DNA from: a virus
Taxonomy: Duplodnaviria; Heunggongvirae; Uroviricota; Caudoviricetes
Length of the DNA: 64,000 bases
IMG/VR virus record: IMGVR_UViG_3300029156_000001
Span: 1-64,000 of that record
Strand: one strand, 5' to 3'
The position numbers were made by a program, and so were the translations under genes. This document shows, one piece after another, positions 8,675 through 22,664 of this stretch (its first letter is position 1; every line of letters starts with the position of its first letter). Below the pieces are notes generated by a model, which was not told where the DNA came from, did no database searches, and was given only the letters and a program-made list of their open reading frames with translations.

Positions 8675-8682
8675 GGTGTATT

Positions 8683-8760
8683 TGGTCCGAGAGGGAGGAT
8701 TTGAACCTCCGCATCACGACTTATCAGGCCGTTGCCTTGACCAGACTTGGCTACTCTCGG
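8683..8760 (-). tRNA. tRNA-Ile (anticodon GAU)
   Basis: acceptor CCGAGAG/CTCTCGG, anticodon arm ACGGC-CTGATAA-GTCGT, T-arm GGAGG-TTCAAAT-CCTCC, encoded CCA. Confidence 0.6.
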
Positions 8761-8761
8761 T

Positions 8762-9034
8762 TTATAGCAGTCCACTAATGCGTGCTGCTTGTGCGGGCGT
8801 AAAAGGCCGCATGTTTTCGTAGTTGGAATTACCCGCGAGACGCTCGACCACTTCGACGCCATCGTACAGAGTGGCAAACCACAAGATATATCCCATAGGA
8901 GCAAATTGCTCTTGAAGTTTACGAACTTCTTGACGGGCCTCGTCAATGTTATTGACTTCAATATGAATATCTGAATCGCGGCTCGTAAAGGTGCCGTTGT
9001 GGATGCCCCACGCAAGTCTTAGTGTCTTATTCAT
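8762..9034 (-). CDS. hypothetical protein
   Basis: 90 aa ORF between tRNA genes. Confidence 0.3.
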   Translation of the reverse strand: MNKTLRLAWGIHNGTFTSRDSDIHIEVNNIDEARQEVRKLQEQFAPMGYILWFATLYDGVEVVERLAGNSNYENMRPFTPAQAARISGLL

Positions 9035-9375
9035 TTTACTACCAGTCCATAGCGTGATTTAATAGTAGCAGATTCTAGAACTACAACACGATCTTCTGGT
9101 TCAATGTAGACGCACAATAGGTCGCAAGTTGTATTATCGAAAGGAATTCGTTTTGTTCCTGATCTGTTCGGACGATGAGACTTAAGGGTAACAATCCATC
9201 CTGTGTCTTCTGGAGTTTTTGTTCTAGTTGACTTAACTTGAACTCGTTGCAGTCTATCTTTGTAGACAACTAAGTCAAAAGGAGCTTTGCCAGATGTGTC
9301 CATAAAGACAAAGTATCCCTGAGCGGCGAAATGTGCCGCACTTTTAAGCTCACCAATAGTTCCTAAATCAGACAT
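9031..9375 (-). CDS. hypothetical protein
   Basis: 114 aa ORF; start overlaps stop of upstream gene (coupled). Confidence 0.35.
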   Translation of the reverse strand: MSDLGTIGELKSAAHFAAQGYFVFMDTSGKAPFDLVVYKDRLQRVQVKSTRTKTPEDTGWIVTLKSHRPNRSGTKRIPFDNTTCDLLCVYIEPEDRVVVLESATIKSRYGLVVK

Positions 9376-9382
9376 ATATTTT

Positions 9383-9469
9383 TGGCGGAAGGTAGAGAGA
9401 ATCGAACCCCGGGCCTTTTACAACCCCCCTGGTATTCAACACCAGTTTGTCACCTTGACGGTACCTTCC
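9383..9469 (-). tRNA. tRNA-Ser (anticodon UGA), type II
   Basis: 87 nt, acceptor GGAAGGT/ACCTTCC, anticodon arm CTGGT-GTTGAAT-ACCAG, long variable arm, T-arm GGGG-TTCGATT-CTCT, encoded CCA. Confidence 0.6.
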
Positions 9470-9944
9470 ATTTTTATTCGTGACTCAATCGACGCACGTT
9501 ACCTAGTGCCTGATGCATGGCACGAGTATAACCTTCCCAAAAGCGATAATCACTCAGGCGAGCACGAAAAGCGTCACAGTCCTTATCGCCAATTTCAGTG
9601 AGTTCCTTTTCAGCGGAAGCGGCACGCTCTTGGGCCGACTTGAGTTCTTCCTCAAGCTCCGCAACGATGCCCTTGTACTCGAACTTACTGAGCACGACGC
9701 TTTAGTCCCCGCTTTGACCAAGGGGCTCGTTGACTCTTACGTTGCTCACGCCGACGGGCTTTGATAAAGCTCTCTTCGTTGGCCTCTTGGGTCGGACGCG
9801 GCATATAGCCACGGAGCCAACGAAGGATGGTTTCGTTCACAAGCTCACCATTACGTCGAGCTTCCATCAGAGACGCGATGGCGTCCTTGGGCGTCACTTT
9901 GCCCTTTTTGACCCGTTCGCGTAGCGAACCTTCTTTCAACAGAC

Positions 9945-10421
9945 TCATTCTAAGTCCTCCGGAAAATGTTTTTTGGTTATAACCTCCCCGATACCGAGAT
10001 CGAGGATGTCTCGCAGTAGTCGTTGTACGTCACCATCATACGGTGCTTTGAGCCGTACGTCAAGCCAAGAGTAGAATTTTTCGTCTTCGACTATCTCGAT
10101 CTCGGTATCGGGGAGATCTTCAAAGTAATCTGCGTCCGTTCCGGCCGCAGGCCGGATCCGAATGATGATGTCACTCTTGCGAGAAGTAGAAGGGCGTGGG
10201 CCTTTTGTTGTTTTGGTCTCACGGATATTCGCCTTAGGCGAAGTTCCGTCATTTTGGAAATTTTGCGGCCCACCCCTTAGTCTACTCTGCAACGCCTCCT
10301 CAGGCGACAGCCCGAGGCTGATCTCTTCTTTTGTACGTCGGAAACGCTTTTCACCAGTCACAGCCTTGTACGACTCAATGTCGTGGATCTGGGCCGCGTG
10401 TTCGGGAGTGATTTCATTCAT
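9945..10421 (-). CDS. hypothetical protein
   Basis: 158 aa ORF. Confidence 0.35.
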   Translation of the reverse strand: MNEITPEHAAQIHDIESYKAVTGEKRFRRTKEEISLGLSPEEALQSRLRGGPQNFQNDGTSPKANIRETKTTKGPRPSTSRKSDIIIRIRPAAGTDADYFEDLPDTEIEIVEDEKFYSWLDVRLKAPYDGDVQRLLRDILDLGIGEVITKKHFPEDLE

Positions 10422-10464
10422 GACACCCTAGTATAGCACGCAAAGCGTGCTGGTCAAGTTATTT

Positions 10465-10552
10465 TGGAAGTAAGTGTGGGATTCGAACCCACGGGGCTGT
10501 TACACCCGGCAGCTTAGCAAGCTGCTACAATAAGCCACTCTGTCAACTTACC
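10465..10552 (-). tRNA. tRNA-Ser (anticodon GCU), type II
   Basis: 88 nt, anticodon arm GCAGC-TTGCTAA-GCTGC, long variable arm, T-arm GTGGG-TTCGAAT-CCCAC, encoded CCA. Confidence 0.6.
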
Positions 10553-10559
10553 ATTATTT

Positions 10560-10634
10560 TGGAGACCGGGGTGCGAATCGAACGCACGTATGAAGGGTTG
10601 CAGCCAACAGCCTAAGCCACTCAGCCACCCGGCC
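10560..10634 (-). tRNA. tRNA, possibly Cys (anticodon GCA?) with U73; anticodon stem poorly paired
   Basis: acceptor GGCCGGG/CCCGGTC (G2-U71), T-arm GTGCG-TTCGATT-CGCAC, U73 discriminator, candidate loop CTGCAAC. Confidence 0.35.
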
Positions 10635-10910
10635 TAATTTACGGCATTGAAATGTGTTCTGTTGATAGATAGATGGTTCCGTCACGACTCCATGTACAAT
10701 ACCACCCTAAAGCAGCAAGGTGTTCTTCGATCAACTCTTTTCTGGTATTGCCATATATGTTTACGTGTGCATATAATTTACCTTGACGTAAACGTTTGGC
10801 AATAGTACGCAAAGCACGTCGAACTTCCTTTTGGAGTGTTTTTTGCTTGCGTTTTTCATACATGGGCAGATACTTGTCGGTAAACTGTCGTGTTGTCGGA
10901 ATTTTTACCA

Positions 10911-11477
10911 TCATCCAATCTCCAAATCTAATTTTTCGAAACCACGATCTTCTACCAACTCCAAGTCCGTTCCGGACTTGAGCATACGATCATACAATAC
11001 AATCGAGACAGCTACGGCGAGATTGGTGCAATGTCGCGACGGGATTTGAATAAAGTGATGACAGTGTTGAAGCGTCACACGCTCTAGGCCACCGTCTTCG
11101 GGACCGAAGACGTAGATGGCATTTTTAGGATGTTCAAACGTCGTCAAGGGCTGGGTGCCCGGCGTGATCTCTACGGCTACCGGAACGGCGTCTTGAAATT
11201 GATCAAAGGGTCTGTCATACTGCCTAAGCTCAACGTCCGCATAGCCCTTCATGCGTTCCTCGCGGGGCAGACGATGCTTGCGATTCATGGAGACGCGGTT
11301 GCCCGTGTACCACAGTTGCCCCATTCCGAAGCACGAACAAGACCGTAGGACAGCACCGACATTACGAGCGTGCTTCGGATTAGTTAGGACGACGGCAGGA
11401 GGTACGCCGAACTTCTTTTTGCCCGGCTCAAAGGACTCCATGTCGCGAGTGAGTTTATCACGTAGTTTGTTGGTCAT
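10911..11477 (-). CDS. SpoU/TrmH-family RNA 2'-O-methyltransferase
   Basis: NVGAVLRSCSCFG motif (SPOUT class N-x-GA-x-x-R-x-x-x-x-FG), 188 aa. Confidence 0.65.
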   Translation of the reverse strand: MTNKLRDKLTRDMESFEPGKKKFGVPPAVVLTNPKHARNVGAVLRSCSCFGMGQLWYTGNRVSMNRKHRLPREERMKGYADVELRQYDRPFDQFQDAVPVAVEITPGTQPLTTFEHPKNAIYVFGPEDGGLERVTLQHCHHFIQIPSRHCTNLAVAVSIVLYDRMLKSGTDLELVEDRGFEKLDLEIG

Positions 11478-11759
11478 CCCACAACTCTTTCAGAAATCTG
11501 GGTGGAAAAGCTTTCTTTTTACGTCTACACCAGTCAAATACAAAATCCCATTGACGTTGCGAAGGAAATGCTGGTTTGCTCGCCAAGTAAAACCAATTGA
11601 ACTTATCGATGCCTGGATCACCCTTCAAAGTCATGAAACCTCGACGCTCTACCTCTGCCTCGCCCTTTTGGCCAACGAGATCAAAGGCTAGATCACAGTG
11701 GCCCCAGGCATGACAAGCGTGAAACGTGCCATCGCGGGCAAGGTATCCGAGTTCAGGTT

Positions 11760-12182
11760 TCATGACACATCCTTTATTCGTCGTTGTTTGTCACAATGTT
11801 TACACTCATCATTAAGACCAAAGGGTTTACTGGCGTTTTTAGAAAAGGTATTGTGAGGTAGGTAAATACGACATCTGTAGCATCGAATATTACCATCTAT
11901 GTCAGTAATTCTCCGTCCTCGCCTACCGGCTTCACTATTGCATGTCTTGTGTGAAAGTGCAACGTTATTTACATCAAAGAAAAGCACCTGAGGGTTGTTA
12001 CTGTCCAGCCAACTAACCTTGTGGTCAATTGACATATCTTGTGGCCTTTCGATAATTTGACCACATCTATAGCATGTTGTCAATCTTAATCGCTGAGCAA
12101 AACTATACAGTAAAGCTTTTACTAGCCTGTTGGTAGCGGTACCTATAGGCATGCCCAACTGCTGTCTTTTCTTTTTGCTCAT
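11760..12182 (-). CDS. HNH endonuclease (start trimmed to internal Met to avoid overlap)
   Basis: CYRCG...IDHKVSWLDSNN...N...HKTCN HNH motif; ORF track extends to 12437 but overlaps the next gene. Confidence 0.55.
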   Translation of the reverse strand: MSKKKRQQLGMPIGTATNRLVKALLYSFAQRLRLTTCYRCGQIIERPQDMSIDHKVSWLDSNNPQVLFFDVNNVALSHKTCNSEAGRRGRRITDIDGNIRCYRCRIYLPHNTFSKNASKPFGLNDECKHCDKQRRIKDVS

Positions 12183-12262
12183 GTTGGTTACGGGGCTGAG
12201 AATTGCACTCAGTTCCCTTGATTCAAAGTCAAGGATGTTTCTGTTACACCACCCCGTAGTGA

Positions 12263-12595
12263 TTACTTTTTGCGGCGGGCCGCAGATTCGCGACGACGAC
12301 GACGCTCTCTCTTTTTCTTCGCGGAGTATTTGGCCAAGCCACCAATTACACCAACGAAAACGCATGCCGCCAGGAATAGTACCATGATGGCGGCGACAAA
12401 GGCGAGCGGTCCCCAAAAGGGACAAGTCACCCACCACCAGGACCAGCCAGCGACGACGCCGACTTCCCCAAGTTTGAGTCCGACGAACAGCAGGCCAAGC
12501 AGGCCAAGAATAGGAAATGCGGGGCGAGCGGTTTCGGTAGACATGATTTTCTTCCGTTTGTTCGGCTTAGGAGCCGAGGTCATAGTAAGTTTCAT
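12263..12595 (-). CDS. small membrane protein (two TM helices, basic C-terminus)
   Basis: hydrophobic segments GLLGLLFVGL and FVAAIMVLFLAACVFVGVIGGL followed by KKKRERRRRRE. Confidence 0.4.
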   Translation of the reverse strand: MKLTMTSAPKPNKRKKIMSTETARPAFPILGLLGLLFVGLKLGEVGVVAGWSWWWVTCPFWGPLAFVAAIMVLFLAACVFVGVIGGLAKYSAKKKRERRRRRESAARRKK

Positions 12596-12648
12596 GCCCT
12601 ATTATACTCGCTCTGCTCGTGAAGTCAAACTTTAACTTCGAAATGTTC

Positions 12649-12722
12649 TGGCGACCCCAGGGAGTATCGATCTCCCGCTACCACCGTGACAGGGTGGCGT
12701 TCTACCATTAAACTATGGAGTC
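12649..12722 (-). tRNA. tRNA-Asp (anticodon GUC)
   Basis: acceptor GACTCCA/TGGGGTC, D-stem GTTT/GAAC, anticodon arm CCACC-CTGTCAC-GGTGG, T-arm GGGAG-ATCGATA-CTCCC, encoded CCA; 5' 15 nt overlap the last codons of pyrB. Confidence 0.65.
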
Positions 12723-13523
12723 AAGTGATGTTGCTAGTAAGGTTTTGCGTATTTGAAGACCGTATGCGACTTGCTTAAAATACACAGCCCTTTTGTCTTG
12801 TTCAATTGCGTTCGGCAATTCTTGTGTGCGTGGTAGTGGATGCATGATGATGGCATCTTCCTTAATATCAGGAAGCATTTTCTCCTCCATCCCATACAAG
12901 ACACCTTCTCTTTTGAGAGAGCGTTCCGTTTGTGGTCGTGTCATGTAAATGACATCGGCTTTGCCAATTTCATTGATATCTGGAAAATCAAAGATGTCCT
13001 GCTTGACAACCTCGACATCAAATTGATTTAGAACAGCAATGAATGAATTGATTGTACGGGCGTTTTCCAGGTCTCCCCAGATCAGAACCCTGTTGCCGTC
13101 GATCCTGCCCTTTTCTCGCCAGATAGTATAGGCGTCCGTTAGAGCCTGCGTTGGGTGACTACCGATGCCATCACCGGCATTGATGATAGGAACGGCTGCT
13201 ACTTCGGCAGCTTTTTGTGCGGCCCCCATTTCTGGATGCCTTAGCACAATAATATCGGCGTAGTTGCCCACGACCTTAATAGTATCTTCTAAAGATTCGC
13301 CTTTGGTAGTCGAGCTAGACGCAGTAGCATTCTCTACGGTAATGACGCCCCCGCCTAACCTAAGTGCGGCCGACTCAAACGACAATCGTGTTCTGGTGGA
13401 TGGCTCGTAAAAGAGAGTGGCTAAAACAAACGGATCACACTCGGCCACTTCGGCAGCAGACGTATGGAAGATCCTTTCTAGCGTATCTCTAGAAAACTGA
13501 TCGGCTTTTAGAATGTGCTTCAT
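12708..13523 (-). CDS. pyrB: aspartate carbamoyltransferase catalytic chain
   Basis: STRTR carbamoyl-phosphate binding motif, HPTQALTD, C-terminal HPLPR (ATCase rather than OTCase); ATG at 13521-13523 preferred over the TTG listed at 13541. Confidence 0.75.
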   Translation of the reverse strand: MKHILKADQFSRDTLERIFHTSAAEVAECDPFVLATLFYEPSTRTRLSFESAALRLGGGVITVENATASSSTTKGESLEDTIKVVGNYADIIVLRHPEMGAAQKAAEVAAVPIINAGDGIGSHPTQALTDAYTIWREKGRIDGNRVLIWGDLENARTINSFIAVLNQFDVEVVKQDIFDFPDINEIGKADVIYMTRPQTERSLKREGVLYGMEEKMLPDIKEDAIIMHPLPRTQELPNAIEQDKRAVYFKQVAYGLQIRKTLLATSLDSIV

Positions 13524-13527
13524 GTTT

Positions 13528-13601
13528 TGGCAGGGGATCAACGAATCGAACGCTGGTCTTCGGGTTTGGAATCCGATATGTTACCACTACACCAATCCCC
13601 T
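13528..13601 (-). tRNA. tRNA-Trp (anticodon CCA)
   Basis: A1-U72 and G73 as in E. coli tRNA-Trp, acceptor AGGGGAT/ATCCCCT, anticodon loop TTCCAAA, T-arm CAGCG-TTCGATT-CGTTG, encoded CCA. Confidence 0.65.
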
Positions 13602-13735
13602 ATATTTCATAATGACACTTAAGATACCAAAGTGTAGTTTATCTGGCACTATGATTGGTGCCGCCCCCAGGTAACGCTCCTGGTCCCCCTGGGTTTCAAC
13701 CAGATGTGCAAGACTTCTACACCAAGGCGGCGATT

Positions 13736-14869
13736 TTACGGCAGGTCGATAGGATCTCGAAAGACGATACCACCTACGAAAATTCGTGGAATCTGATCGT
13801 CCGTCCGATCAAAGAATCGAACGGTCAATATTTTTCCAATGTACTGTTGTCGTTCTTCGTACTGCCGACGACGTTCCGGCATGGAACCCTTCCAAAGACA
13901 CTCAAAGGTTGCATCCGTCACGTCATTGCGACAGACAAAGACGGCATGACCCTTCATTTTACCTATACCATCGATCACGTCTACCACTTCGAACTCGGCA
14001 TCTTGAAACTCTTTCACTTTCAAGAGTTCAGCAGAACGATATCCCCAAATGTATGTGCCGTTATGACTTCGTAGAATAGCACCCTCATATCCCCGCGTTA
14101 CAAACGTGCCATATGCTGACCACATATCAGTTTCGTTTGCAACCAGGACGGTTGGCACCCTTTCCACATTCTTACTTGGCTGGAAATGAGGTTTGAGATA
14201 AAGAGCGTCGGAGCGAGCCTTCCATGAGAGAGTGTCGTCCCCTAGTACCACCGGCATATCGTAAACATGAAAGATGAGTCGGGCACTTTCGGGCTTATAC
14301 GATTTAGTGCCGGGGACCGCCGATTTTGCCCAAGACGTAATTCGCTGACATGATTCTCCGTGAGTGTATAGTTCGCCATCTAGAGTGATACCTTCGGGCA
14401 GCCAGTTGGCAAGCTGTTCTTGTACCAGGGGGATCGTCCACGGCTTCCCTTGGCGGGAGGTCAGGGCGATACTACCATCGGCGGCCCTCTGAGCAAGGCA
14501 ACGTACCCCATCTAGCTTAGGCTGAATGTCTACGCCGCCTTCATAACTAAGATTTTTCCTTTTCGAGCCCTTGAAAGAATGGGCCAACATAGGCAAGGGT
14601 AGTTGCTCTTGAGCATCCTCTGGAGTAAGCGAGTATTTCCGCTCTAGTTTATATGTGTGTAGCGACTGTGCCTCCAGTACGGCTTGCTCGTCGGGAGTAG
14701 TAGCATTCTTACGTCCCGCGTTCTTTGCCTCGGCTGTCTTACGACTGATTTGAAGCTTACCCCCGACGGTGCCATATTCCGTCAGGATATCTGCACCGTC
14801 GGTGAAGACTCGCCACTGACGGAGATCGCCGCCTTTAGCTTTGTGAAACAGTGTAGGTAGTTTTTGCAT
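13736..14869 (-). CDS. ATP-dependent DNA ligase (T7-type)
   Basis: motif I KLDGVRCLA (K-x-D-G-x-R), motif IV EGAILR, motif V LLKVKEF; 377 aa. Confidence 0.8.
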   Translation of the reverse strand: MQKLPTLFHKAKGGDLRQWRVFTDGADILTEYGTVGGKLQISRKTAEAKNAGRKNATTPDEQAVLEAQSLHTYKLERKYSLTPEDAQEQLPLPMLAHSFKGSKRKNLSYEGGVDIQPKLDGVRCLAQRAADGSIALTSRQGKPWTIPLVQEQLANWLPEGITLDGELYTHGESCQRITSWAKSAVPGTKSYKPESARLIFHVYDMPVVLGDDTLSWKARSDALYLKPHFQPSKNVERVPTVLVANETDMWSAYGTFVTRGYEGAILRSHNGTYIWGYRSAELLKVKEFQDAEFEVVDVIDGIGKMKGHAVFVCRNDVTDATFECLWKGSMPERRRQYEERQQYIGKILTVRFFDRTDDQIPRIFVGGIVFRDPIDLP

Positions 14870-15134
14870 TGGTGATTTTCAGCCAGCGGATCAAATGTTT
14901 GACAGTTGTGGGACCAATGAAACAGTGTCCTTCGCCAAAGGTGTCATGCACAAGCCTGTGACATGGTTTACAAAGGCCAATTGTGATGGCACCCTTACGT
15001 CTGGAAAGAAGGTGCTCGTTGAACCTAGGATCCTTACGTGGCACCATATGATGCCGCGTAAAATCGTCCTTTTTGCACGGTCCACAAGCTCGACAAGTGG
15101 GAGGATAGAGCCATTTGCGTTTTTTAGCCATCAA
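14835..15134 (-). CDS. small HNH endonuclease
   Basis: CxxCxxC ... HHMVPR ... CKPCHRLVH zinc-ribbon HNH signature. Confidence 0.6.
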   Translation of the reverse strand: MMAKKRKWLYPPTCRACGPCKKDDFTRHHMVPRKDPRFNEHLLSRRKGAITIGLCKPCHRLVHDTFGEGHCFIGPTTVKHLIRWLKITNAKTTYTVSQS

Positions 15135-15382
15135 TCAACCCTACTGAGAATGTAGTCTTCTTCGAGAGCGTCCCATAGCCATTGTACTGCTAGTGACTTA
15201 GATGAAAAACCAGGACTGAGTTCTTCATAAAAGCGTTTATACTGGACGTTTTTGATGCCGGTCCACCACAATCCCTTATGTTTAAAAACGGCGTACTGGC
15301 CATTGTCAAAGGTTGATATCTTCATAGTGTTTGGTAGGCCCGGAAGGAATTGCACCCTCATCTGATGGTTCGTAGCCACCAA
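15131..15382 (-). CDS. hypothetical protein
   Basis: 83 aa ORF translationally coupled to downstream HNH gene. Confidence 0.3.
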   Translation of the reverse strand: MVATNHQMRVQFLPGLPNTMKISTFDNGQYAVFKHKGLWWTGIKNVQYKRFYEELSPGFSSKSLAVQWLWDALEEDYILSRVD

Positions 15383-15696
15383 TGCTGTCTGTTACACCAC
15401 AGGCCCATTTGTTTCTGTTATTCTACACGCCGCAGGCGTGTTGGGGTGAAAGTTCGGTTCTGCCCCGAATCCTCTCGGGTCACAGCCGAGTAGGCTACTA
15501 TTACAACACAATCACCGTTCGCTCCGCTCACGGATTTAGATGTACCGCGAGCAGTCTTTCGAGCACCACAGACAAAACCTCTTCTGCAAGTAGATTCGTG
15601 TTGTCATGGTGTTCGTCTTACTAATCACCTTCCAGGCGGTCATATCATGAATGCCGAAGAAGCATATCACTTGACGCCACCACGGGCCGGTAAACA

Positions 15697-16365
15697 TCAG
15701 AATGAGTAGCCCAGAAGGACGAAGAGTGTACCGCCATTGAGGCTGGGGCTGTTCACGAAGATATCAGAGTCACTGGCTCCGAAGTGCTGCCGGTACAGAC
15801 CCGCGAGGCTCCAGTTGTCGGACATGAACCATCTGCTGCCGACTTGAGCGTACGGAGCATAGCCGGTGTCACGGTCACTGATAACAGACGTGTACGTGGG
15901 GTCGATGTCGGTATCGATACTGAAAGCCGAGACGCCACCACTAGCAAAAACTTGCCAACGATCAGTCAGCATCCAGTTTTTACGAAGGCCAAAGTAGAGT
16001 TCACGGACCGTCGAGGTTGTGTCACTCACGGGGCGGTTTTCGTAAAAGCCGTCGCTGGAAATGTTCTGGCCCAGCGAAAAGCCAACTTCCGGACCGAAGC
16101 CGTCCTTGCCGCAGAAATCGGCCTGGACGGTAAAAAGCTGTTGCTCGTCGGTTTGCTCCCAATCATTCTGGGCATCGTAGTTTCGCCAACCGTATCCGAT
16201 ATCGACGGTCGGGGCGAGTTGTCCTTGCGGGCCTTGACAGGCGGCGAGGAGGACTAGGGTTGCCGTAGCAAGTAGTAGATTCTTCATGCGTGCATTATAC
16301 TGCACGCATGGAGGGTTGTCAACCTTCTTCTGCTTCAATTTGTTGCAGGGCGTGTGCTTTGGCAA
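15697..16365 (-). CDS. outer-membrane beta-barrel protein with lipoprotein-type signal (Lom/Ail/OmpX-like)
   Basis: signal peptide with LAAC lipobox, alternating amphipathic beta-strand pattern, aromatic-rich, C-terminal ...GYSF (terminal Phe typical of OM beta-barrels). Confidence 0.5.
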   Translation of the reverse strand: MPKHTPCNKLKQKKVDNPPCVQYNARMKNLLLATATLVLLAACQGPQGQLAPTVDIGYGWRNYDAQNDWEQTDEQQLFTVQADFCGKDGFGPEVGFSLGQNISSDGFYENRPVSDTTSTVRELYFGLRKNWMLTDRWQVFASGGVSAFSIDTDIDPTYTSVISDRDTGYAPYAQVGSRWFMSDNWSLAGLYRQHFGASDSDIFVNSPSLNGGTLFVLLGYSF

Positions 16366-16497
16366 TGCCTACCTCAGAGGCAAACTTGAAAGCGAAAATT
16401 AGGACTGTGCCTGTAATTACCGCAATTAGGACTTTTGAAGTGTTTTCGTTGATTTCGATTTTCATTAATCTCGTGCCTCGACTAGAGTGGTCGGGAA

Positions 16498-16570
16498 CCC
16501 GAGAATCGCACTCGGAGCTTCGGCTTATGAGGCCGACGTGTTACTGTTACACCAATTCCCACTCGTTTTA
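16498..16570 (-). tRNA. tRNA-Met (anticodon CAU), elongator or Ile2-type
   Basis: D-stem GTGT/ACAC, anticodon arm TCGGC-CTCATAA-GCCGA, T-arm CCGAG-TGCGATT-CTCGG, encoded CCA. Confidence 0.55.
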
Positions 16571-16786
16571 CTCATGATAGTAAAATTGTGCATTACGACT
16601 AAGATCCTGCATCGCCTGTCTTAGAACGAGAGTGTGTTCATCAGGACCGCGATCCCAAATAAAACATTCCATCGCGGCGTGCCGACAGGCATTAGGCATG
16701 TAGATGCTACCATTCCGAAGAGGGGTTTCAAAATCAGGAATGATAGCTACAACAGCATTAAAGAGATCTTCTTTAGAATATTGCAT
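16568..16786 (-). CDS. hypothetical protein (start trimmed to internal Met)
   Basis: ORF track start 16822 would overlap the upstream tRNA; internal Met at MQYSKEDLF avoids the overlap. Confidence 0.3.
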   Translation of the reverse strand: MQYSKEDLFNAVVAIIPDFETPLRNGSIYMPNACRHAAMECFIWDRGPDEHTLVLRQAMQDLSRNAQFYYHE

Positions 16787-16802
16787 AGTGTTTGGTAGGG
16801 TA

Positions 16803-16881
16803 GGTGGGAGTCGAACCCACAAACGACGCAGATTTTAAGTCTACCGGCGATGCCAATTAGCCTACTACCCCGCTTGTTTCT
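16803..16881 (-). tRNA. tRNA, short variable arm, apparent anticodon UAA (Leu-type) with A73 and encoded CCA
   Basis: paralog of the 6183/6273 tRNAs: acceptor GGGGTAG/CTACCCT, D-arm TAGGCTAATTGG, anticodon arm GTAGA-CTTAAAA-TCTGC, T-arm GTGGG-TTCGACT-CCCAC. Confidence 0.5.
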
Positions 16882-17326
16882 TTTTCAAGGCAATTGTGCC
16901 TTCGCGTACCCTAACACGATACCCATTATCGGTCCAGAAAGCACATTCGTCAACAGCGTCTTGGCGTCTGCCAATTGTGACCTGTAAGGCTTGCCAAGGC
17001 TCGTTGTCGGCATTGCGGCCCAGAATGATCCAGACGGGTTCGCTAGTCTCCACGGACTTCCCCTTCTATACGATCAAAGTCTTGCATGGCCGCATGAGCT
17101 TCGTAGTAGCCGTTATTGGTGCCGGGGCTGGTACTGGACTTTTTGATGGCCAATACAAGGTTGCTTAGGCCACGAAATACCCGAATCCATTGATCTCGTG
17201 AGAGCGAGAAGGGCTGTTCGGGTGTACTCGCAGGACCAGATTTGATCAGCCAGTCTTGGTTTTCGTCAGTCATACCCTACTATACCCCAGGAAGTGATGA
17301 TTGTCAAGCACTTCCTGGGGGTTGTT

Positions 17327-17404
17327 TGGTCGGAGCGGCTGGATTCGAACCAGCGTTCTGTAGCTTCCAAGGCCACCGAGGACTCCAGACTCCTCCACGC
17401 TCCG
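17327..17404 (-). tRNA. tRNA-Pro (anticodon UGG)
   Basis: C1-G72 as in bacterial tRNA-Pro, D-stem GAGG/CCTC, anticodon arm GTGGC-CTTGGAA-GCTAC, T-arm GCTGG-TTCGAAT-CCAGC, encoded CCA. Confidence 0.7.
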
Positions 17405-17412
17405 ATTGTGAT

Positions 17413-17501
17413 TGGCTCATGGACTAGGGTTTGCACCTAGGGTGGGGATTACTCCCGCGAGCTTAACAGGCTCGTGCCTTCGACTACTCGGCCATCCATG
17501 A
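17413..17501 (-). tRNA. type II tRNA with Tyr-like body but anticodon GUU
   Basis: 89 nt, acceptor TCATGGA/TCCATGA, D-arm GCC-GAGTAGTCGAA-GGC, anticodon arm CGAGC-CTGTTAA-GCTCG (E. coli tRNA-Tyr has CUGUAAA), long variable arm, T-arm CTAGG-TGCAAAC-CCTAG, encoded CCA. Confidence 0.5.
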
Positions 17502-17504
17502 ATA

Positions 17505-17579
17505 TGGCTGGGATACTACGACTCGAACGTAGAATACAAGAGTAACAATCTTGCGTGTTACCAATTACACCATATCCCA
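17505..17579 (-). tRNA. tRNA-Asn (anticodon GUU)
   Basis: U1-A72 as in E. coli tRNA-Asn, D-stem GTGT/ACAC, anticodon arm CAAGA-TTGTTAC-TCTTG, T-arm CTACG-TTCGAGT-CGTAG, encoded CCA. Confidence 0.65.
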
Positions 17580-17585
17580 ATGTTC

Positions 17586-17661
17586 TGGTTGCGGGACTGA
17601 GATTCGAACTCAGGTTGCCGGATTCAGAGTCCGGAGTATTGGGCCTCTATACTATCCCGCG
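17586..17661 (-). tRNA. tRNA-Gln (anticodon CUG) with unpaired C1xA72
   Basis: acceptor CGCGGGA/TCCCGCA, D-stem GTAT/ATAC, anticodon arm CCGGA-CTCTGAA-TCCGG, T-arm CTGAG-TTCGAAT-CTCAG, encoded CCA. Confidence 0.6.
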
Positions 17662-17750
17662 TTTCAAAAGACGCGACCACTCGCCACCCACCCCGGATTA
17701 CCTCCTACGGAGGAGAGCCGGGCCTAAGCCTTGTCCGTCGCGTCTTTGTT

Positions 17751-18011
17751 TTATCTATTTGCCTCGCGAAGAATGGCGTCTACTTCATCCATGTCTGGAC
17801 TACTTGTGTTATGCCAATAGAAGCACGTTCTACAACAGTAGGGACGAATACCCTCTCGACTATCGGCTTCTCGTGCCGCTTTGGCAGATTTATAAGCCCT
17901 CTTGCTGTAGCAACGTTTTTCAAGCCGTTCTTTTTTGAGTTGTCTTTTAGATTTCATTGTTTTGGTAGGCAATGAGGGTAACGATCCCCCGTCTTTGGTA
18001 TGTAACACCAA
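17751..18011 (-). CDS. hypothetical zinc-finger protein
   Basis: 86 aa, CC...C...H cluster near C-terminus (YCCRTCFYWH). Confidence 0.3.
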   Translation of the reverse strand: MVLHTKDGGSLPSLPTKTMKSKRQLKKERLEKRCYSKRAYKSAKAAREADSREGIRPYCCRTCFYWHNTSSPDMDEVDAILREANR

Positions 18012-18026
18012 TGTTCTTCCATTGAA

Positions 18027-18419
18027 CTAATCGCCCTCTTGTTCCGTCTTCGGAACATTGTCTGAATGCGGTGCTACCGCTTGCCACTGTACATCGTTAT
18101 AAGGATCTGACAAATCGTCACAGTAATGGGTTTGCTTGGAACGATTGAACGTTAAGCGTCCCTCTCGATGCAGTTTGCCTTTGTCAAATTTGAAACGCAG
18201 GCACGATTTGTAGCCCGCTTGAGTATTTGGCTCGAAAAAGATACGGACCGCTTCATATAGGTGGACCGGCGGAAAAACTAGGCCATCTTCCTCAAACGAA
18301 GGAATGGTAAATTTGATCCACCAATAACCTTCGCTGCCGGCACTGATCCACTGTTCATAAGTGGGAGGGTTGTTTTGCCACGTCATGCCACAGTATAGCA
18401 CTCGATGGTGGCATGTCAA
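18027..18419 (-). CDS. hypothetical protein
   Basis: 130 aa ORF in co-directional gene string. Confidence 0.35.
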   Translation of the reverse strand: MTCHHRVLYCGMTWQNNPPTYEQWISAGSEGYWWIKFTIPSFEEDGLVFPPVHLYEAVRIFFEPNTQAGYKSCLRFKFDKGKLHREGRLTFNRSKQTHYCDDLSDPYNDVQWQAVAPHSDNVPKTEQEGD

Positions 18420-18685
18420 GCTATGACTTCAAATTCTTCTAGAAGCCATACCTCATCATCAACCCATTCGGACCAACCATCGAAGAGAATCTCAATAGAC
18501 CAACGTTCTGGTCCGTTTTCCTTAATTCTCACTTGACAACCCTCATGTTGTCCTTGTGTCCTAAGGTCAGCCTGTAAATCTTGCTGGATAAATGCGATTG
18601 CTTTTTGCTTATCTAGATAGATATCAATATTTTGTGGTGAACAATCGACCGAATCCCACCCTCGTCTAACAAGATATACTTTCAT
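18416..18685 (-). CDS. hypothetical protein
   Basis: 89 aa ORF, start/stop coupled with neighbours. Confidence 0.3.
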   Translation of the reverse strand: MKVYLVRRGWDSVDCSPQNIDIYLDKQKAIAFIQQDLQADLRTQGQHEGCQVRIKENGPERWSIEILFDGWSEWVDDEVWLLEEFEVIA

Positions 18686-18945
18686 GAGATTCTAATCTTA
18701 ATTTTGCGATAAACACCACTTTTTGCTGTTAGGTGATGCAAATGCACAAGATTCAAATACTCAAGAAACTCCTGTTTGTTACGATAAACAATATGGGGAC
18801 ATTTTCCGCTTTTGTTTTTTAGTATCCATTGATCATTTTCTACGCAGACAATGTACTTCTCTTGAATTTCATCTTTGAGCACCCATGCGACATGATCACC
18901 TGGGTCTACATCGTAAATGAGTGGGCTGTTATCTAGTATTAGCAT
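18682..18945 (-). CDS. hypothetical protein
   Basis: 87 aa ORF, coupled. Confidence 0.3.
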   Translation of the reverse strand: MLILDNSPLIYDVDPGDHVAWVLKDEIQEKYIVCVENDQWILKNKSGKCPHIVYRNKQEFLEYLNLVHLHHLTAKSGVYRKIKIRIS

Positions 18946-19019
18946 ATTAATGTTTTGGAGCCGGTTCCCGGTACCGCCCCGGGGGCTAAAGCTTACAAGG
19001 CAATTGTTTTACTATTAAA

Positions 19020-19391
19020 CTAAACCGGCTTACGCCTAATGCGTTTGGCGTTTTTGTGTGATTTGAAAGCACGGCAAATACTGCATCTACAGCCACCATC
19101 ATACTTTCTATTTGTACCATGTTTTGCTGGTGGAATCTGACTAATGGTTTTAGCAAGATGACATGGGTGGCATAAAACTTGACACTTCGCAAGTTCTTTT
19201 TGTAGTCTCTTTTCGGACCAAGACCAAACTCTATGTTCTATTTTTTGACTAGGATCAATATGATCAACCTCTAGTCTTTTACTGGAGCCACACTTTACAC
19301 AAGGACCATTTTTCTCTAGCCAATCAGCACGTCGTCGAGCCACCATGAGACGCTGATATTCTCGTTGTTTATTTGGATCCTTGTATGGCAT
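19020..19391 (-). CDS. HNH endonuclease
   Basis: CVKCGS...EVDHIDPS...CHPCH motif. Confidence 0.7.
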   Translation of the reverse strand: MPYKDPNKQREYQRLMVARRRADWLEKNGPCVKCGSSKRLEVDHIDPSQKIEHRVWSWSEKRLQKELAKCQVLCHPCHLAKTISQIPPAKHGTNRKYDGGCRCSICRAFKSHKNAKRIRRKPV

Positions 19392-19623
19392 ATGGACTAA
19401 AAGACATCAGGCACTTTCCATGTATCTTTCCAAATTGGTGCTCGAAAAACACGATCTTCTTTTGTGTTGTGCCATGCTCCGCATGAACATGGGCCATCAT
19501 CAAGATCGCATTCTGATCCGTTACGTCTTTTCCATCCTGTGCGTTCGTCCGTTTCCCAATCGGTATCGAAGACCGCTTCTAGGTAACCATCTTCGCGATA
19601 TACACATCTGGTGATAGCCATAA

Positions 19624-19929
19624 CTATTTGTACAGCTTAAAGCTTTCGAAAAGTTCAGGCCACTCTTTACGGGGACAGAATGCGACCGCAACAGTTTCGT
19701 GACCAATGACGGATTCCGTGATGACAACGTGATTGTCCGCGTTAGACATAGCTTGTGCTAATTCTGCATCGTTTACGATACAGGTGACCTTCCTAAAGGA
19801 GTCCGCAAGCCATCGTTGCATATCTCGATGGCCCGCATACTTGAGAAAGCAAGCCACCGAGGCGTGAGCGACACCATTTATTGCATACCCAAGGGGTACG
19901 TCTTCTCGCACCAGAATATACATTTTCAT
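19624..19929 (-). CDS. peptidyl-tRNA hydrolase, PTH2 family
   Basis: KMYILVREDVxLGxxxxGVAHASVA aligns with PTH2 MxLVVRxDLxMGKGKxAAQCSHA; C-terminal ...FKLYK matches PTH2 C-terminus (...LKLY); ~100 aa size. Confidence 0.7.
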   Translation of the reverse strand: MKMYILVREDVPLGYAINGVAHASVACFLKYAGHRDMQRWLADSFRKVTCIVNDAELAQAMSNADNHVVITESVIGHETVAVAFCPRKEWPELFESFKLYK

Positions 19930-19941
19930 GTCGCTACTCTC

Positions 19942-20286
19942 CTAATTATTGTAAGCCTTACGGCCAAAAAGTCGTACTGCACGGTACATCATATGACGTT
20001 TAATTAAACCTACCCCCGACTCTTTCATGACACGTAAAAAGATGCCGTCTGCATCCTTGCGTGATACCTCATGTGAGGAATAGAGCCAATCATGTAGGAC
20101 TGCCGCCTTGGTATACTTGCCTGTGGGCGGCACAATGTTCCAGAATGCACGGGGCACACTGGCAAAGTCTGTTGTAAATGAAGCGGGAACAACAAAAGTA
20201 TCTCTAGCACCCTCGTACACGAGATCTTGCAGTAGTTCCCATCTGTCGTTTTTACCCTCTTTAACGTGAAGCTCTGTTACGAACAT
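19942..20286 (-). CDS. DUF1353-family phage protein
   Basis: TDFASVPR...W...P..G.Y..AAVLHDWLY pattern characteristic of DUF1353. Confidence 0.45.
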   Translation of the reverse strand: MFVTELHVKEGKNDRWELLQDLVYEGARDTFVVPASFTTDFASVPRAFWNIVPPTGKYTKAAVLHDWLYSSHEVSRKDADGIFLRVMKESGVGLIKRHMMYRAVRLFGRKAYNN

Positions 20287-20333
20287 ATTATCCCCCCTTT
20301 TTTATTAGGACCCATAAGATAATACGCTAAGAG

Positions 20334-20408
20334 TGGTACTCCGAGAGGGTATCGATCCCTCTTCTCCACCTTGAAAGGGTGGTATCCTAGCCAGTAGACG
20401 ACCGGAGC
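20334..20408 (-). tRNA. tRNA-Glu (anticodon UUC)
   Basis: acceptor GCTCCGG/TCGGAGT, anticodon arm CCACC-CTTTCAA-GGTGG, T-arm GAGGG-ATCGATA-CCCTC, encoded CCA. Confidence 0.6.
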
Positions 20409-20439
20409 TATCGGGCGGCGATGCCGCCCTCAAAGTTAT

Positions 20440-20517
20440 TGGTCTGCGGTGTGAGAATCGAACTCACCCGGAGAGATCAGGCCCCGACTCTCCCCTTAGG
20501 GAGTTCCCTGACCGCAG
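20440..20517 (-). tRNA. tRNA-like element with canonical acceptor/T-arm but unresolvable D/anticodon arms (possible pseudo-tRNA)
   Basis: acceptor CTGCGGT/ACCGCAG, T-arm GTGAG-TTCGATT-CTCAC, encoded CCA; interior contains GGAGAG...CTCTCC stem enclosing a 12-nt loop instead of a 7-nt anticodon loop. Confidence 0.35.
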
Positions 20518-20840
20518 TATTCTTCACGAAGCTCGCGAAGGGCAATTTTGTAGAGACGATAGTATTCGCTATCATCAGGTAGGCCGTGACGGTAATCCGA
20601 ACCACGAAGTTCGTGATATAGATTTAGGGCGGCGGTGATCTTGGGCTTCCTTCTTTGTGCCATGTTGGCCGCCCTAAAGGATTCCTTAAGCTTCACTCGT
20701 TGAGCAGTAGGAATGTCGCTCCAGCTAACGTCGCCCCAACTGGTGCGGGGGAACTTAGGAAGCGGACCAGTCTTACGTTCAGACTTTAGTTGTACTTGCT
20801 CGACTGCCAGATCTTTGATTAGTTGTTTCAATTCTCTCAT
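20496..20840 (-). CDS. hypothetical protein
   Basis: 114 aa ORF; 3' end overlaps the tRNA-like element. Confidence 0.3.
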   Translation of the reverse strand: MRELKQLIKDLAVEQVQLKSERKTGPLPKFPRTSWGDVSWSDIPTAQRVKLKESFRAANMAQRRKPKITAALNLYHELRGSDYRHGLPDDSEYYRLYKIALRELREEYCGQGTP

Positions 20841-20944
20841 ATCTATTCTCCATTTAAAGCGTTTACTTGAAATACAAAAACAGATATGGTGTCACGGTGG
20901 TCTATGTGTCTACGACATGATTTGCCTTTCGGGCAAAGAGTTGA

Positions 20945-21020
20945 TGGAGGGCACGGTGAGGTTCGAACTCACATCTTCCCGGTTTAGAGCCGGGTGCATT
21001 TCCACTAATGCTACGTGCCC
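20945..21020 (-). tRNA. amber suppressor tRNA (anticodon CUA), U73
   Basis: fully canonical 76-nt fold: acceptor GGGCACG/CGTGCCC, D-arm GCAT-TAGTGGAA-ATGC, anticodon arm CCCGG-CTCTAAA-CCGGG (U33, anticodon C-U-A, A37), T-arm GTGAG-TTCGAAC-CTCAC, encoded CCA. Confidence 0.65.
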
Positions 21021-21147
21021 CTACTCCCCGCTAACGGGGGAATTGTAAATGGCTGCCCTGGTTATGTTGCTTCCTTAGGAATTCAGATATCATGCAAGAA
21101 AACTGGCTACAGCCGCATTTGTTTCTGCCGCTTTTGCGGCAGTTGAG

Positions 21148-21223
21148 TGGTGGAAAGCTGGGGAATCGAACCCCACACACGGAGCTTGCAAAGCTCTGTC
21201 GCCTCCTTGGTACATGGCCCCCC
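21148..21223 (-). tRNA. tRNA-Ala (anticodon UGC), G3-U70
   Basis: acceptor GGGGGGC/GCTTTCC with G3-U70, anticodon arm (A)GAGC-TTTGCAA-GCTC(C), T-arm TGGGG-TTCGATT-CCCCA, ends CCACCA; D-arm poorly defined. Confidence 0.45.
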
Positions 21224-21234
21224 CATTATAAGCG

Positions 21235-21312
21235 AGTGACTAGGATTCGAACCTAGATCGTGAGCGTCAATAAGACTGGCCAGTCTGGGTGCTCATGTGT
21301 TACCGTTACACT
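21235..21312 (-). tRNA. tRNA-like element with expanded (~25 nt) anticodon-region loop; possible pseudogene
   Basis: T-arm CTAGG-TTCGAAT-CCTAG, D-arm GTGT-AACGGTA-ACAC, acceptor AGAGTGA/TCACTCG, no encoded CCA; TGAGC...GCTCA stem encloses 25 nt including palindrome AGACTGGCCAGTCT. Confidence 0.3.
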
Positions 21313-22664
21313 ATCACTCTATTCTCATATGTCTTTTACAGCATCTTCCGGAAGCTTCGTCTGTTTCTGTTACACTGACGTTGACATAATCGAAGTTCTA
21401 AAACTCGAAAAAGGTAGGACTTGCACCCACCAGCGGTTGTACGACCTATTTAGCTGCCTAATATTTTACGAGGACTCGAACCTCTTACCCTCCAAGGGAA
21501 TGCCGAATCGAACGGCTAACTGCTATTTTCATTTTCGAGCGTTTTGAAACGCAGGCACGACTGGAATCGAACCAGTATTTCCCTGCCGGGCGTACTATCC
21601 ATATTATACTACGTCTTAGTCCTGCGTTGAAAGATAGAGCATCTTGCGATCCCCTTCGTTTGTTTCGCTAGGATTCGCTGTAAATTCTTTCAAGGGCTTC
21701 CACACCCTCACCGGATCGTACGAACCCCGGCGGCTTCTACAACTATTACTATCCACAAACAAACTGAGGCTACGTCACACCTGTCGCAAGTTCACGTAGT
21801 CAGGTTCAGAAGGCATCGGCAATGTACTAGTCATTGCTTACTGAATTCATTTCCTTCGTCTGCCATACTCTATTGTACTATTGTAGGGGTTAAGGACTCC
21901 CTACGAGCCCCAATTTTGGTAACCACTGAAATTGGAAACGGGGCCGATTCACCTTTTTGGATCCACACTTTTATCTTGTCGGCAAAACCATTAGTGTTCT
22001 TAAATCTCGCACCGATCTAGTATAGGCAGCATTCCCGTGGTGACACACGGTCTCTTGCCACAACCTTAATCGTACGCTTCGGATGCGTCACCATCCATCC
22101 CTGTACTCGCTCATCCAGCTTCCGCAACGCTAGTGGATACCAGCCTTGCCGAAGGCAAGCTTTTCTCTATCCTGCGGCACACCCGAAGGCGACCGACTAA
22201 CAGCCTCAGCCCGGCCAAGAGCATAAGGTTTAATGTCCGGAGAACTCGGACAATACGTTCGCTTCGCTCACGAAGCGTTGATTTTGCGGGTTATGGGCCT
22301 CCCGCCAGCCACCTAAGAGTAACCGTCCGCTTTGACGTAACGAGACAGCAAGCGTAGCCGTCTCCCTCTTTCGGTCGTTCGATTTTGGAGCAAAAGCTCC
22401 AAGGAATATATCGTGCCGGTAGCTAAGCGGCAGCCGGTGATCGCTAATACAGGCCAAGTTTCCATCGATGTTTCCATCGTGTACTGACAAGCTGGTGGCT
22501 GGACGATACGTCCCTTACAGCAGCGGACGCTGAGCGTCTCCGCTGCCGTAGAGGTGATCCCGAGTTGTCGGATGGCATCGCTGCCAGAGCCCGAGGTATT
22601 GCCGCCTCACGATCCCCTGCGAAAAGCAGGCTAGACCCGGCTCGTCACGTCACCGCGACAGGAC

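Follow-up and report, generated by a model that had tools for sequence, protein, structure and literature searches.

A conserved phage tRNA gene that combines a long variable arm with the anticodon GUU and an asparagine-type acceptor end

The long-armed tRNA gene and its cluster

We analysed a 64,000-nt stretch of DNA from a Caudoviricetes virus (IMG/VR record IMGVR_UViG_3300029156_000001, positions 1–64,000), which is referred to here as the window and whose numbering is used throughout. Its minus strand carries an 89-nt gene for a tRNA that joins a class II body, with a long variable arm, to the anticodon GUU. A canonical type I tRNA-Asn(GUU) adjoins it, as had been noticed from the sequence alone. 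That gene starts 4 nt further in plus-strand coordinates; since the minus strand carries both genes, transcription reaches it first, and 3 nt separate the two. The cluster and the parts of the long-armed gene are as follows.

17327–17661, minus strand: cluster tRNA-Gln(CUG), tRNA-Asn, long-armed tRNA, tRNA-Pro(UGG), with spacers of 6, 3 and 8 nt (ARAGORN); the slot before tRNA-Pro is conserved in relatives
17505–17579, minus strand: canonical type I tRNA-Asn(GUU), 63.8 bits (ARAGORN, Rfam), upstream of the long-armed gene in the same direction of transcription
17413–17501, minus strand: class II-bodied, probable tRNA-Asn(GUU), 89 nt including the encoded CCA at 17413–17415 (ARAGORN, Rfam, orthologue covariation)
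17416–17423, minus strand: acceptor 3´ strand UCCAUGA and discriminator G73 (17416), which with 17495–17501 gives U1-A72 and C2-G71 (sequence)
17424–17440, minus strand: T arm CUAGG-UGCAAAC-CCUAG, with G replacing U55 (sequence)
17441–17457, minus strand: 17-nt variable region, C followed by a GGGA/UCCC stem with a GUAA (GNRA) loop and CACC (sequence, fold, compensatory changes in orthologues)
17465–17467, minus strand: anticodon GUU (tRNA positions 34–36) in the loop CUGUUAA (ARAGORN, Rfam, sequence)
17476–17492, minus strand: class II-type D arm GCC-GAGUAGUCGAA-GGC, with a 3-bp stem and AG replacing the usual G18 G19 (sequence)

ARAGORN calls the gene with the anticodon GTT at tRNA position 35. 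Against the Rfam tRNA model, 17416–17501 scores 49.8 bits (gathering score 29; local E = 6.9e-10) and aligns end to end; the model takes CUGUUAA as the anticodon loop and accommodates the variable region with 13 inserted nt. Read directly, the gene is UCAUGGA-UG-GCC-GAGUAGUCGAA-GGC-A-CGAGC-CUGUUAA-GCUCG-C-GGGA-GUAA-UCCC-CACC-CUAGG-UGCAAAC-CCUAG-UCCAUGA-G-CCA. The acceptor stem UCAUGGA/UCCAUGA is followed by U8 and G9, the acceptor and T stems form the standard 7/5 branch, the 7-nt anticodon loop contains U33 and A37, and the class II D loop, 11 nt long, has additional bases behind G19. The D arm is identical in long-armed phage tRNA-Tyr, tRNA-Gln and tRNA-His. ViennaRNA alone does not recover this cloverleaf, which required the covariance model and comparative data.

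ARAGORN, Rfam and the direct reading bear out the length, the long variable arm and the class II D arm given by the sequence-only reading, and its anticodon arm, CGAGC-CUGUUAA-GCUCG, matches exactly. Re-reading and the Rfam covariance alignment both give GUU rather than GUA. The proposed distance of a single A36-to-U change from E. coli tRNA-Tyr is true only of the 7-nt loop, and CUGUUAA is equally the loop of E. coli tRNA-Asn.

Conservation in related phages

Relatives were collected through homologues of the DNA ligase encoded at 13736–14869 (53–69% identity), which lie on contigs of 105–185 kb, and the surrounding DNA was examined. This yielded seven distinct long-GUU orthologues, namely those of the window, L254, L256, L257, L259, L261 and L269. 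Relatives found through rIIA in IMG/VR are too distant and mostly lack tRNAs, and among the matches listed in a metagenome scan with an 18-nt D-arm pattern most are chance hits in GC-rich coding DNA and few are tRNAs.

The anticodon GUU is invariant in all seven orthologues, although the DNA ligases of these phages are only 53–64% identical. The class II cloverleaf pairs in 98.8% of the cells of the alignment, and double changes affect 14 of 24 pairs, among them three in the variable arm and the whole anticodon stem (five pairs); none of 500 shuffles, and no slid register, approaches the observed pairing and covariation. Every variable arm has 3–4 bp and a GNRA tetraloop cap. At the acceptor end, U1-A72 and C2-G71 are invariant, pairs 3-70, 4-69 and 7-66 covary, and the discriminator is G73 in six of the seven. 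Most of the long-GUU relatives carry a separate tRNA-Tyr(GUA).

These alignments show that the fold and the GUU anticodon are maintained by selection in a family of large phages. Conservation, covariation and the invariant anticodon therefore argue that the gene is neither a pseudogene nor a recent slip of A36 to U. The pseudogene considered in the sequence-only reading is ruled out by the perfect stems, the 14 covarying pairs and the invariant GUU, and a recently altered tRNA-Tyr by the persistence of GUU in diverged phages, the separate tRNA-Tyr(GUA), and G73 in place of A73.

The slot before tRNA-Pro(UGG) is filled differently among the relatives. It holds the short and the long Asn genes together in the window, L254 and L256, the long gene only in L257 and L259, and the short gene only in L258. 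The long form is the sole Asn gene in the stretch seen of L261 and L269, where it does not adjoin tRNA-Pro, and only the short form is present in the stretch seen of L260. Such a swap of short and long forms at the same slot is the pattern predicted by functional equivalence.

The elbow of the window tRNA has AG for G18 G19 and UGC for UUC (G55), and the same elbow is found in the Gln(UUG), Arg(ACG) and Met(CAU) tRNAs at 12185–12258, 15332–15406 and 16488–16561. The long Asn orthologues have GG in the D loop together with UUC (UUCGAAU T loop), and thus both elbow changes go together. Among about 580 phage tRNAs, a set partly selected by the D-arm search pattern, G55 occurs with loss of GG in 50 cases versus 8, and U55 with GG in 470 versus 18.

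A tyrosine-like body with an asparagine-type acceptor end

The sequence-only reading had called the body Tyr-shaped, and within class II it is indeed Tyr-like. On the 3´ side of the variable arm, the long-armed Asn genes leave 3–4 nt unpaired (4 in the window), compared with 3 in phage tRNA-Tyr, 1 in tRNA-Ser and 2 in tRNA-Leu; 31 of 47 phage tRNA-Ser arms have 4–6 bp with 1 unpaired 3´ nt, and the window arm has 4 bp with 4. Positions 8–65 are 80–82% identical to an 83-nt family of phage tRNA-Tyr(GUA) found in the Microcystis phage MaMV-DC, where the gene is unannotated, and in related viral contigs. The two share an identical 20-nt D arm (UGGCCGAGUAGUCGAAGGCA), the UGCAAA T loop, a short variable stem with 3–4 unpaired 3´ nt, and G34 U35. 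In contrast, the window tRNA has GUU rather than GUA, G73 rather than A73, U1-A72 rather than G1-C72, unrelated acceptor and anticodon stems, and a variable region that is 4 nt longer.

The D stem is 4 bp long in canonical tRNA-Asn and 3 bp in the window tRNA, whose D loop has 11 nt; in place of the canonical variable loop of 5 nt, the window tRNA has a 17-nt region that includes a 4-bp stem. Its sequence-profile scores are 26.2 bits for Ser_II, 20.5 bits for Tyr_II and only 1.1 bits for Asn_I, the profile of short phage tRNA-Asn. Since the Ser_II and Tyr_II scores far exceed that for Asn_I, an isotype-versus-anticodon mismatch flag is expected for 17413–17501.

The acceptor end carries a different signature. 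The canonical tRNA-Asn(GUU) of E. coli (asnT-W) shares with the window tRNA the CUGUUAA loop, U1-A72, C2-G71, G73 and the encoded CCA. The combination of U1-A72, C2-G71 and G73 occurs in 15 of 595 distinct phage tRNAs, and all 15 have the anticodon GUU (8 short and 7 long, including the independent lineage L169); it is found in none of 40 Tyr, 48 Ser and 69 Leu phage tRNAs. C2-G71 by itself is absent from all 48 phage tRNA-Ser, and A73 is present in every long phage tRNA-Tyr (28 distinct in one set and 39 in the set of 595). These counts show that the acceptor end is, by sequence, a bacterial tRNA-Asn signature and not one of Tyr, Ser or Leu.

In bacteria, Asn identity resides in G73 and G34 U35 U36 (with A37), a set that can be transplanted into tRNA-Lys (Giegé and Eriani, PMC9976931). 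G73 is an antideterminant against TyrRS and LeuRS, C2-G71 is one against E. coli SerRS (PMC9976931), and U1-A72 is a determinant for the amidotransferase GatCAB (PMC9976931; PMC2330236). The window tRNA contains all of G34 U35 U36 with A37, G73 and U1-A72. Of the features of tRNA-Tyr it has G34, U35 and a Tyr-like arm geometry, yet it lacks A36 (and hence GUA), has G73 instead of A73, and begins with U1-A72 instead of G1-C72. Of those of tRNA-Ser it has G73, C11-G24 and G30-C40, the last of which is lost in L254, but it has neither G2-C71 nor C72, nor an arm of Ser-type length and orientation. Because of the antideterminants G73 and C2-G71, TyrRS, LeuRS and SerRS should, by the published rules, reject the long-armed tRNA; AsnRS, or AspRS together with GatCAB, should accept it.

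Codon usage in the phage DNA ligase bears on decoding. AAC or AAU (AAY) codons stand at ligase positions 50, 55 and 315, where the columns are Asn in 19, 19 and 17 of 19 homologues, and no AAY codon falls in a Ser- or Tyr-conserved column of this alignment of one gene and 19 homologues. Wholesale reassignment of AAY is excluded on this single ligase gene, a comparison that does not cover low-level miscoding. The mis-decoding or recoding role entertained in the sequence-only reading is thus disfavoured by the Asn-type acceptor end, the antideterminants against TyrRS, LeuRS and SerRS, and the AAY codons at invariant Asn columns.

Long-armed tRNAs in other phages

Long GUU tRNAs are also present in cultured phages of other families. 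They are annotated as plain tRNA-Asn in phiKZ and its relatives (PHIKZ_t02, 87–89 nt), PA1C, the Sinorhizobium phage Phosso, 4MG and GAP31; Av-05 carries the same long GUU gene with no annotation at the match. These genes resemble that of the window in length (86–91 nt), GUU, G73, the class II D arm and a body identity of 76–81%, and except in Phosso their variable arm consists of 1 nt, 3–4 bp, a 4-nt loop (mostly GNRA; GGAA in Av-05) and 4 nt. They differ in having G2-C71 throughout, and G1-C72 in the enterobacterial phages (4MG, Av-05, GAP31). The first pair is U1-A72 in the Pseudomonas and Sinorhizobium phages.

The indirect route through AspRS and GatCAB is the only source of Asn-tRNA in P. 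aeruginosa (PMC2330236). Sinorhizobium is not known to use any other route, and enterobacterial hosts have AsnRS and are not known to have GatCAB. The distribution of U1-A72 and G1-C72 across these hosts fits charging with Asn. The host of phiKZ relies on the indirect pathway, and the stretch seen of phiKZ contains no Asn tRNA other than the long form. The enterobacterial versions, with G1-C72 and G2-C71, appear more Ser-like.

The design extends to further anticodons in scans of viral contigs and of the relatives, with the following marks at the acceptor end.

Long-armed His (GUG): G at −1 and C73
Long-armed Cys (GCA): U73
Long-armed Gln (UUG): U1.U72 and G73
Long-armed Lys (CUU or UUU): A73
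Long-armed Thr (UGU): G1-C72, C2-G71 and U73, the same as in short Thr genes

In each of these, judged by its sequence, the marks at the acceptor end are those of the amino acid that the anticodon specifies; they do not point to Ser, Leu or Tyr. For Lys and for Thr, too, a long gene in one relative can stand at the array position that a short gene takes in another. Most related long-armed genes share the arm of 1 nt, 3–4 bp, a 4-nt loop (usually GNRA) and 3–4 nt, from which Phosso differs. A second, independent long-armed tRNA-Asn (L169) has a type I D arm with an inserted arm, U1-A72 and G73. Among cultured phages, long-armed tRNA-Lys is found in Caulobacter phages and in the Xanthomonas phage XacN1, and long-armed tRNA-Thr in the Cronobacter phage GAP32 and the Synechococcus phage BUCT-ZZ01. 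We found no paper on this architecture in phages in the open-access literature, an absence that is not proof, and the long-armed phage tRNAs for Asn, Lys and Thr apparently form a widespread, undescribed set.

The annotated tRNA-Lys(UUU) genes of 4MG (L305:935–1021) and GAP31 (L310:336–425) owe their length to a 20-nt D loop (AAGCGGCGACGUAUGUCUAA) and not to the variable arm, and are not called by ARAGORN.

Textbooks confine the long variable arm in bacteria to tRNA-Leu, tRNA-Ser, tRNA-Tyr and tRNA-Sec, where it is an identity mark. Here, conserved and widespread phage tRNAs place it on Asn, Lys and Thr with cognate acceptor ends. If they are charged correctly, AsnRS (or AspRS with GatCAB), LysRS and ThrRS would tolerate a class II body, and the arm would have to serve another purpose. 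For annotation, isotype-model checks will flag such genes as mismatches or possible recoding, though they are probably ordinary decoders. The same design in the laboratory phages phiKZ, 4MG, Av-05, GAP31, XacN1 and the Caulobacter phages makes the question directly testable.

Probable charging with asparagine

Taken together, the sequence data indicate that 17413–17501 is probably a functional, conserved phage tRNA-Asn built on a class II, Tyr-like body with a long variable arm. It would be charged with Asn either directly by AsnRS, through the anticodon and G73, or by a non-discriminating AspRS followed by GatCAB, which needs U1-A72. The long-armed tRNA would then decode AAC and AAU as Asn, without miscoding.

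Several observations weigh against this reading. Class IIb synthetases approach the tRNA from the side of the variable loop, so the extra arm might clash with them. G73, the long arm, C11-G24 and G30-C40 belong to the bacterial Ser set as well, four of whose seven elements are present. One orthologue, recovered in two independent assemblies (L254:7590–7678 and L255:4969–5057), has U73 instead of G73, and U73 is the discriminator of the same phage family's tRNA-Ser(GCU). The versions in 4MG, Av-05 and GAP31, with G1-C72 and G2-C71, are a better fit to SerRS. The identity rules are mostly derived from E. coli and may not be those of the host. Finally, a supernumerary D-loop base causes rejection of a tRNA by bacterial GatCAB (PMC2330236), and the D loops of class II tRNAs are enlarged.

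Several of these features would equally suit charging with serine, which we consider unlikely. SerRS recognises its tRNA by the long arm and the discriminator, without regard to the anticodon; it would place Ser at Asn codons, possibly in competition with AsnRS as a dual identity. In its favour, beside the shared Ser elements (the long arm, G73, C11-G24 and G30-C40), the U73 orthologue and the coliphage pairs G1-C72 and G2-C71, are the top sequence-profile score (Ser_II, 26.2 bits) and the precedents for mischarged long-armed tRNAs among nematode nev-tRNAs and bacterial allo-tRNAs. Against serine stands C2-G71, the SerRS antideterminant, which is invariant in the seven orthologues and absent from the 48 phage tRNA-Ser; A72 and U4-A69 also lie outside the Ser set. 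The arm, 4 bp with 3–4 unpaired 3´ nt, is unlike the 4–6 bp with 1 of tRNA-Ser, the long form takes the slot of the short Asn tRNA in some relatives, and AAY codons occupy the invariant Asn columns of the ligase.

The precedents themselves differ from the window tRNA at the decisive positions. Nematode nev-tRNAs likewise combine a class II body with a class I anticodon and are conserved within their lineage (Hamashima et al., 2012, PMC3333845). They keep their Leu determinants, are charged only with Leu, and miscode (PMC3333845), whereas the acceptor end of the window tRNA matches the amino acid of its own anticodon and carries antideterminants against the synthetases of class II tRNAs. Allo-tRNAs from irregular tRNA polycistrons likewise have a long arm and many non-serine anticodons, and some occur in phages (Mukai et al., 2017, PMC5389517). 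Their branches are 8/4 or 9/3, their D arms resemble those of tRNA-Sec, and Ser or Ala is the amino acid that they are believed to accept; in contrast, the window tRNA has a 7/5 branch and an Asn-type acceptor end. With mischarged variable-arm tRNAs it therefore shares a class II body with a non-Leu/Ser/Tyr anticodon, but neither a donor identity nor an 8/4 or 9/3 branch. Because G73 excludes Leu, and C2-G71 and A72 miss the Ser set, no donor class II identity is retained.

A role mainly outside decoding for a tRNA that is made and perhaps charged, as a decoy for a host tRNA nuclease or as a dedicated substrate of a phage enzyme for repair, modification or aminoacyl transfer, is also improbable. 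The conserved GNRA-capped arm is a typical docking element, the gene lies among tRNA-processing and repair genes, and charged irregular tRNAs that are unused in translation were described by Mukai et al. (PMC5389517). Nevertheless, the 7/5 branch, the 7-nt loop with U33 and A37, and the invariant anticodon and acceptor identity pairs are those expected of a decoding tRNA, and the long form substitutes for the short one at the same slot.

A tRNA-Tyr that underwent the A36-to-U change and still accepts tyrosine, thereby inserting Tyr at Asn codons, is very improbable. Its body and variable arm are nearest to phage tRNA-Tyr, the bacterial TyrRS anticodon determinants G34 and U35 are kept, and about 80 kb of the contig yielded no tRNA-Tyr. 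G73, the TyrRS antideterminant, speaks against it, since every phage tRNA-Tyr examined has A73; so do the first pair U1-A72 in place of G1-C72, the invariant GUU beside a separate tRNA-Tyr(GUA) in orthologues, and the wholly different acceptor and anticodon stems. A decaying, functionless duplicate, to which the adjoining canonical tRNA-Asn of the same anticodon, the unusual A18/G55 elbow and a tRNA remnant elsewhere in the array might point, has hardly any likelihood given the perfect stems and 14 covarying pairs, the encoded CCA, the lack of any other phage Asn tRNA beside the long form in several relatives and in the examined part of phiKZ, and the occurrence of the same elbow in other intact tRNAs of the window.

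A possible role of the extra arm against host tRNA nucleases

Across 16 related loci, the long-armed tRNAs of isotypes outside class II comprise Asn (7), Lys (6), Thr (4), Cys (1) and Pro (1); none occurs among about 190 other distinct tRNAs. AriB, the nuclease of PARIS, has the tRNAs for Asn, Lys and Thr as its target set, and phage T5 needs its copies of the same three tRNAs to neutralise AriB (PMC12409363). The T5 copies retain the class I shape and avoid cleavage through point changes near the 40/41 cut site and within the D loop, where the published model puts the second AriB contact (PMC12409363); the long-armed forms are copies of the same isoacceptors with an extra arm. The window thus encodes a copy of an AriB-targeted isoacceptor, Asn(GUU), and its variable arm leaves the tRNA directly 3´ of the anticodon-stem strand that bears the AriB cut site. 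Genes for tRNA repair and maintenance lie nearby.

883–5899, minus strand: CCA-adding enzyme with an HD domain (883–2148), AAA_33 kinase-like gene, SSB and RNA ligase (4751–5899), part of the tRNA repair kit
19624–19929, minus strand: peptidyl-tRNA hydrolase PTH2 inside the tRNA array (Pfam PF01981)
27470–29502, minus strand: Thg1-like 3´-5´ polymerase (27470–28237), metallophosphatase (28159–28869) and cyclic-phosphate processing receiver-domain protein (28870–29502)

A second RNA ligase, of the T4 Rnl1 type, lies just outside the window in the contig flank (L135:14678–15742). As annotated, the tRNA repair and maintenance set of the window, to which a SpoU methylase also belongs, is unusually complete. 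The overlap with the AriB target set and the adjoining repair kit therefore suggest a part in tRNA warfare. We tentatively propose that the extra arm is a shape change that evades a host tRNA nuclease of the PARIS AriB kind, a reading of the sequences that has clearly less than an even chance of being right. The arm would keep the phage Asn, Lys and Thr tRNAs usable while the nuclease cuts the host copies, and such evading tRNAs would complement the phage repair enzymes. Also short of an even chance is a general form of this proposal, in which phages counter host defence by moving tRNAs to another shape class: they would add a GNRA-capped arm to Asn, Lys and Thr and, in the same genomes, take the long arm off Leu, and these tRNAs would remain substrates of their cognate synthetases yet fit the host nucleases no longer.

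Several points tell against evasion. The match of Asn, Lys and Thr to the AriB targets was recognised in hindsight. A single mutation separates each anticodon from the next (GUU-UUU-UGU), and the alternative could be one scaffold of shared ancestry that spread as its anticodon shifted. Positions 36–41, where AriB recognises and cuts its targets, do not differ consistently between short and long tRNAs; the window has UAAGCU and E. coli tRNA-Asn UAAUCC, and the orthologues vary (UAAUCA in L259).

In the enterobacterial phages, the long GUU tRNA of 4MG, Av-05 and GAP31 (G1-C72, G2-C71, G73) could be a dual Asn/Ser acceptor that blurs AAY decoding. Two other candidates were dropped: a bacterial Schlafen as a class II-specific nuclease, a specificity that the paper does not show, and tRNA-dependent DNA modification by Mom, for which we found no link to long arms.

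The tRNA array and its surroundings

ARAGORN finds 25 tRNA genes in the window, 24 of them in a minus-strand array at 6183–21320. The contig that contains the window (105,365 bp, JGI 3300029169) has an identical copy in the independent read set SRR4039783. The phage encodes rIIA/rIIB, terminase, DNA ligase, two RNA ligases, the CCA-adding enzyme, PTH2, a SpoU methylase, the Thg1-like enzyme, the metallophosphatase and the cyclic-phosphate processing protein. Because the region has no near match in the cultured-phage collection, the window is, on sequence grounds, that of a new phage. Rfam and ARAGORN find no tRNA-Tyr, tRNA-His or tRNA-Gly in about 80 kb of the contig (record positions 1657–81851).

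Four tRNA-Leu genes of the array, on the minus strand at 6183–6259 (UAG), 6273–6350 (CAA), 7532–7608 (GAG) and 16793–16871 (UAA), are 77–79 nt long with a variable loop of 5–6 nt. They are class I-shaped and have lost the long arm, and retain the Leu-like 3-bp D stem and A73. The relatives have short (77–78 nt) or long (84–89 nt) versions of tRNA-Leu, and 4MG and Av-05 also carry a 77-nt tRNA-Leu(UAG). Short-armed tRNA-Leu has a precedent in Streptomyces coelicolor (PMC6614811).

Several other tRNA-like genes of the array are unusual. One that ARAGORN calls Leu CAG, at 21232–21320 (minus strand), with counterparts at L256:5134–5222 and in L269, has 25 nt in place of the 7-nt anticodon loop; this insert (ACCCAGACUGGCCAGUCUUAUUGAC) contains a perfect inverted repeat and is conserved in relatives, the acceptor stem, D arm and T arm are normal, and CCA is absent. 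At 20945–21020 (minus strand) lies an amber-suppressor-type tRNA(CUA) with U73, which is conserved in relatives. Several relatives also encode a release-factor-like protein (PCRF/RF-1 domains) beside PTH2 in the array (L254:6631–7306, L256:6510–7191, L258:3348–3635). A tRNA-Thr(UGU) at 18959–19029 (minus strand) is found by Rfam only (43.9 bits) and missed by ARAGORN; it has two mismatched anticodon-stem pairs and the unusual T loop GGCGGUA. A truncated tRNA-like remnant at 21557–21614 (minus strand) scores 27.9 bits, just below the Rfam threshold, and only 4 nt stand where the anticodon loop would be. The remnant sits in a 1.4-kb stretch without a called gene, where relatives have tRNA-Tyr and tRNA-Gly genes.

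Scanning for promoters and terminators near the cluster brought no decisive result for the tRNA genes. Within an 11-bp inverted repeat at 17279–17307 (minus strand) lies a near-consensus promoter (TTGACA, 17 nt, TATAGT), directly downstream of tRNA-Pro and upstream of a 76-aa open reading frame at 17043–17273. Elsewhere in the window, the segment 36000–44000 has a G+C content of 55–58%, versus 47–51% outside it, a reversed skew, and genes of the DUF932 and GP88 families; by its composition it may be an inserted element.

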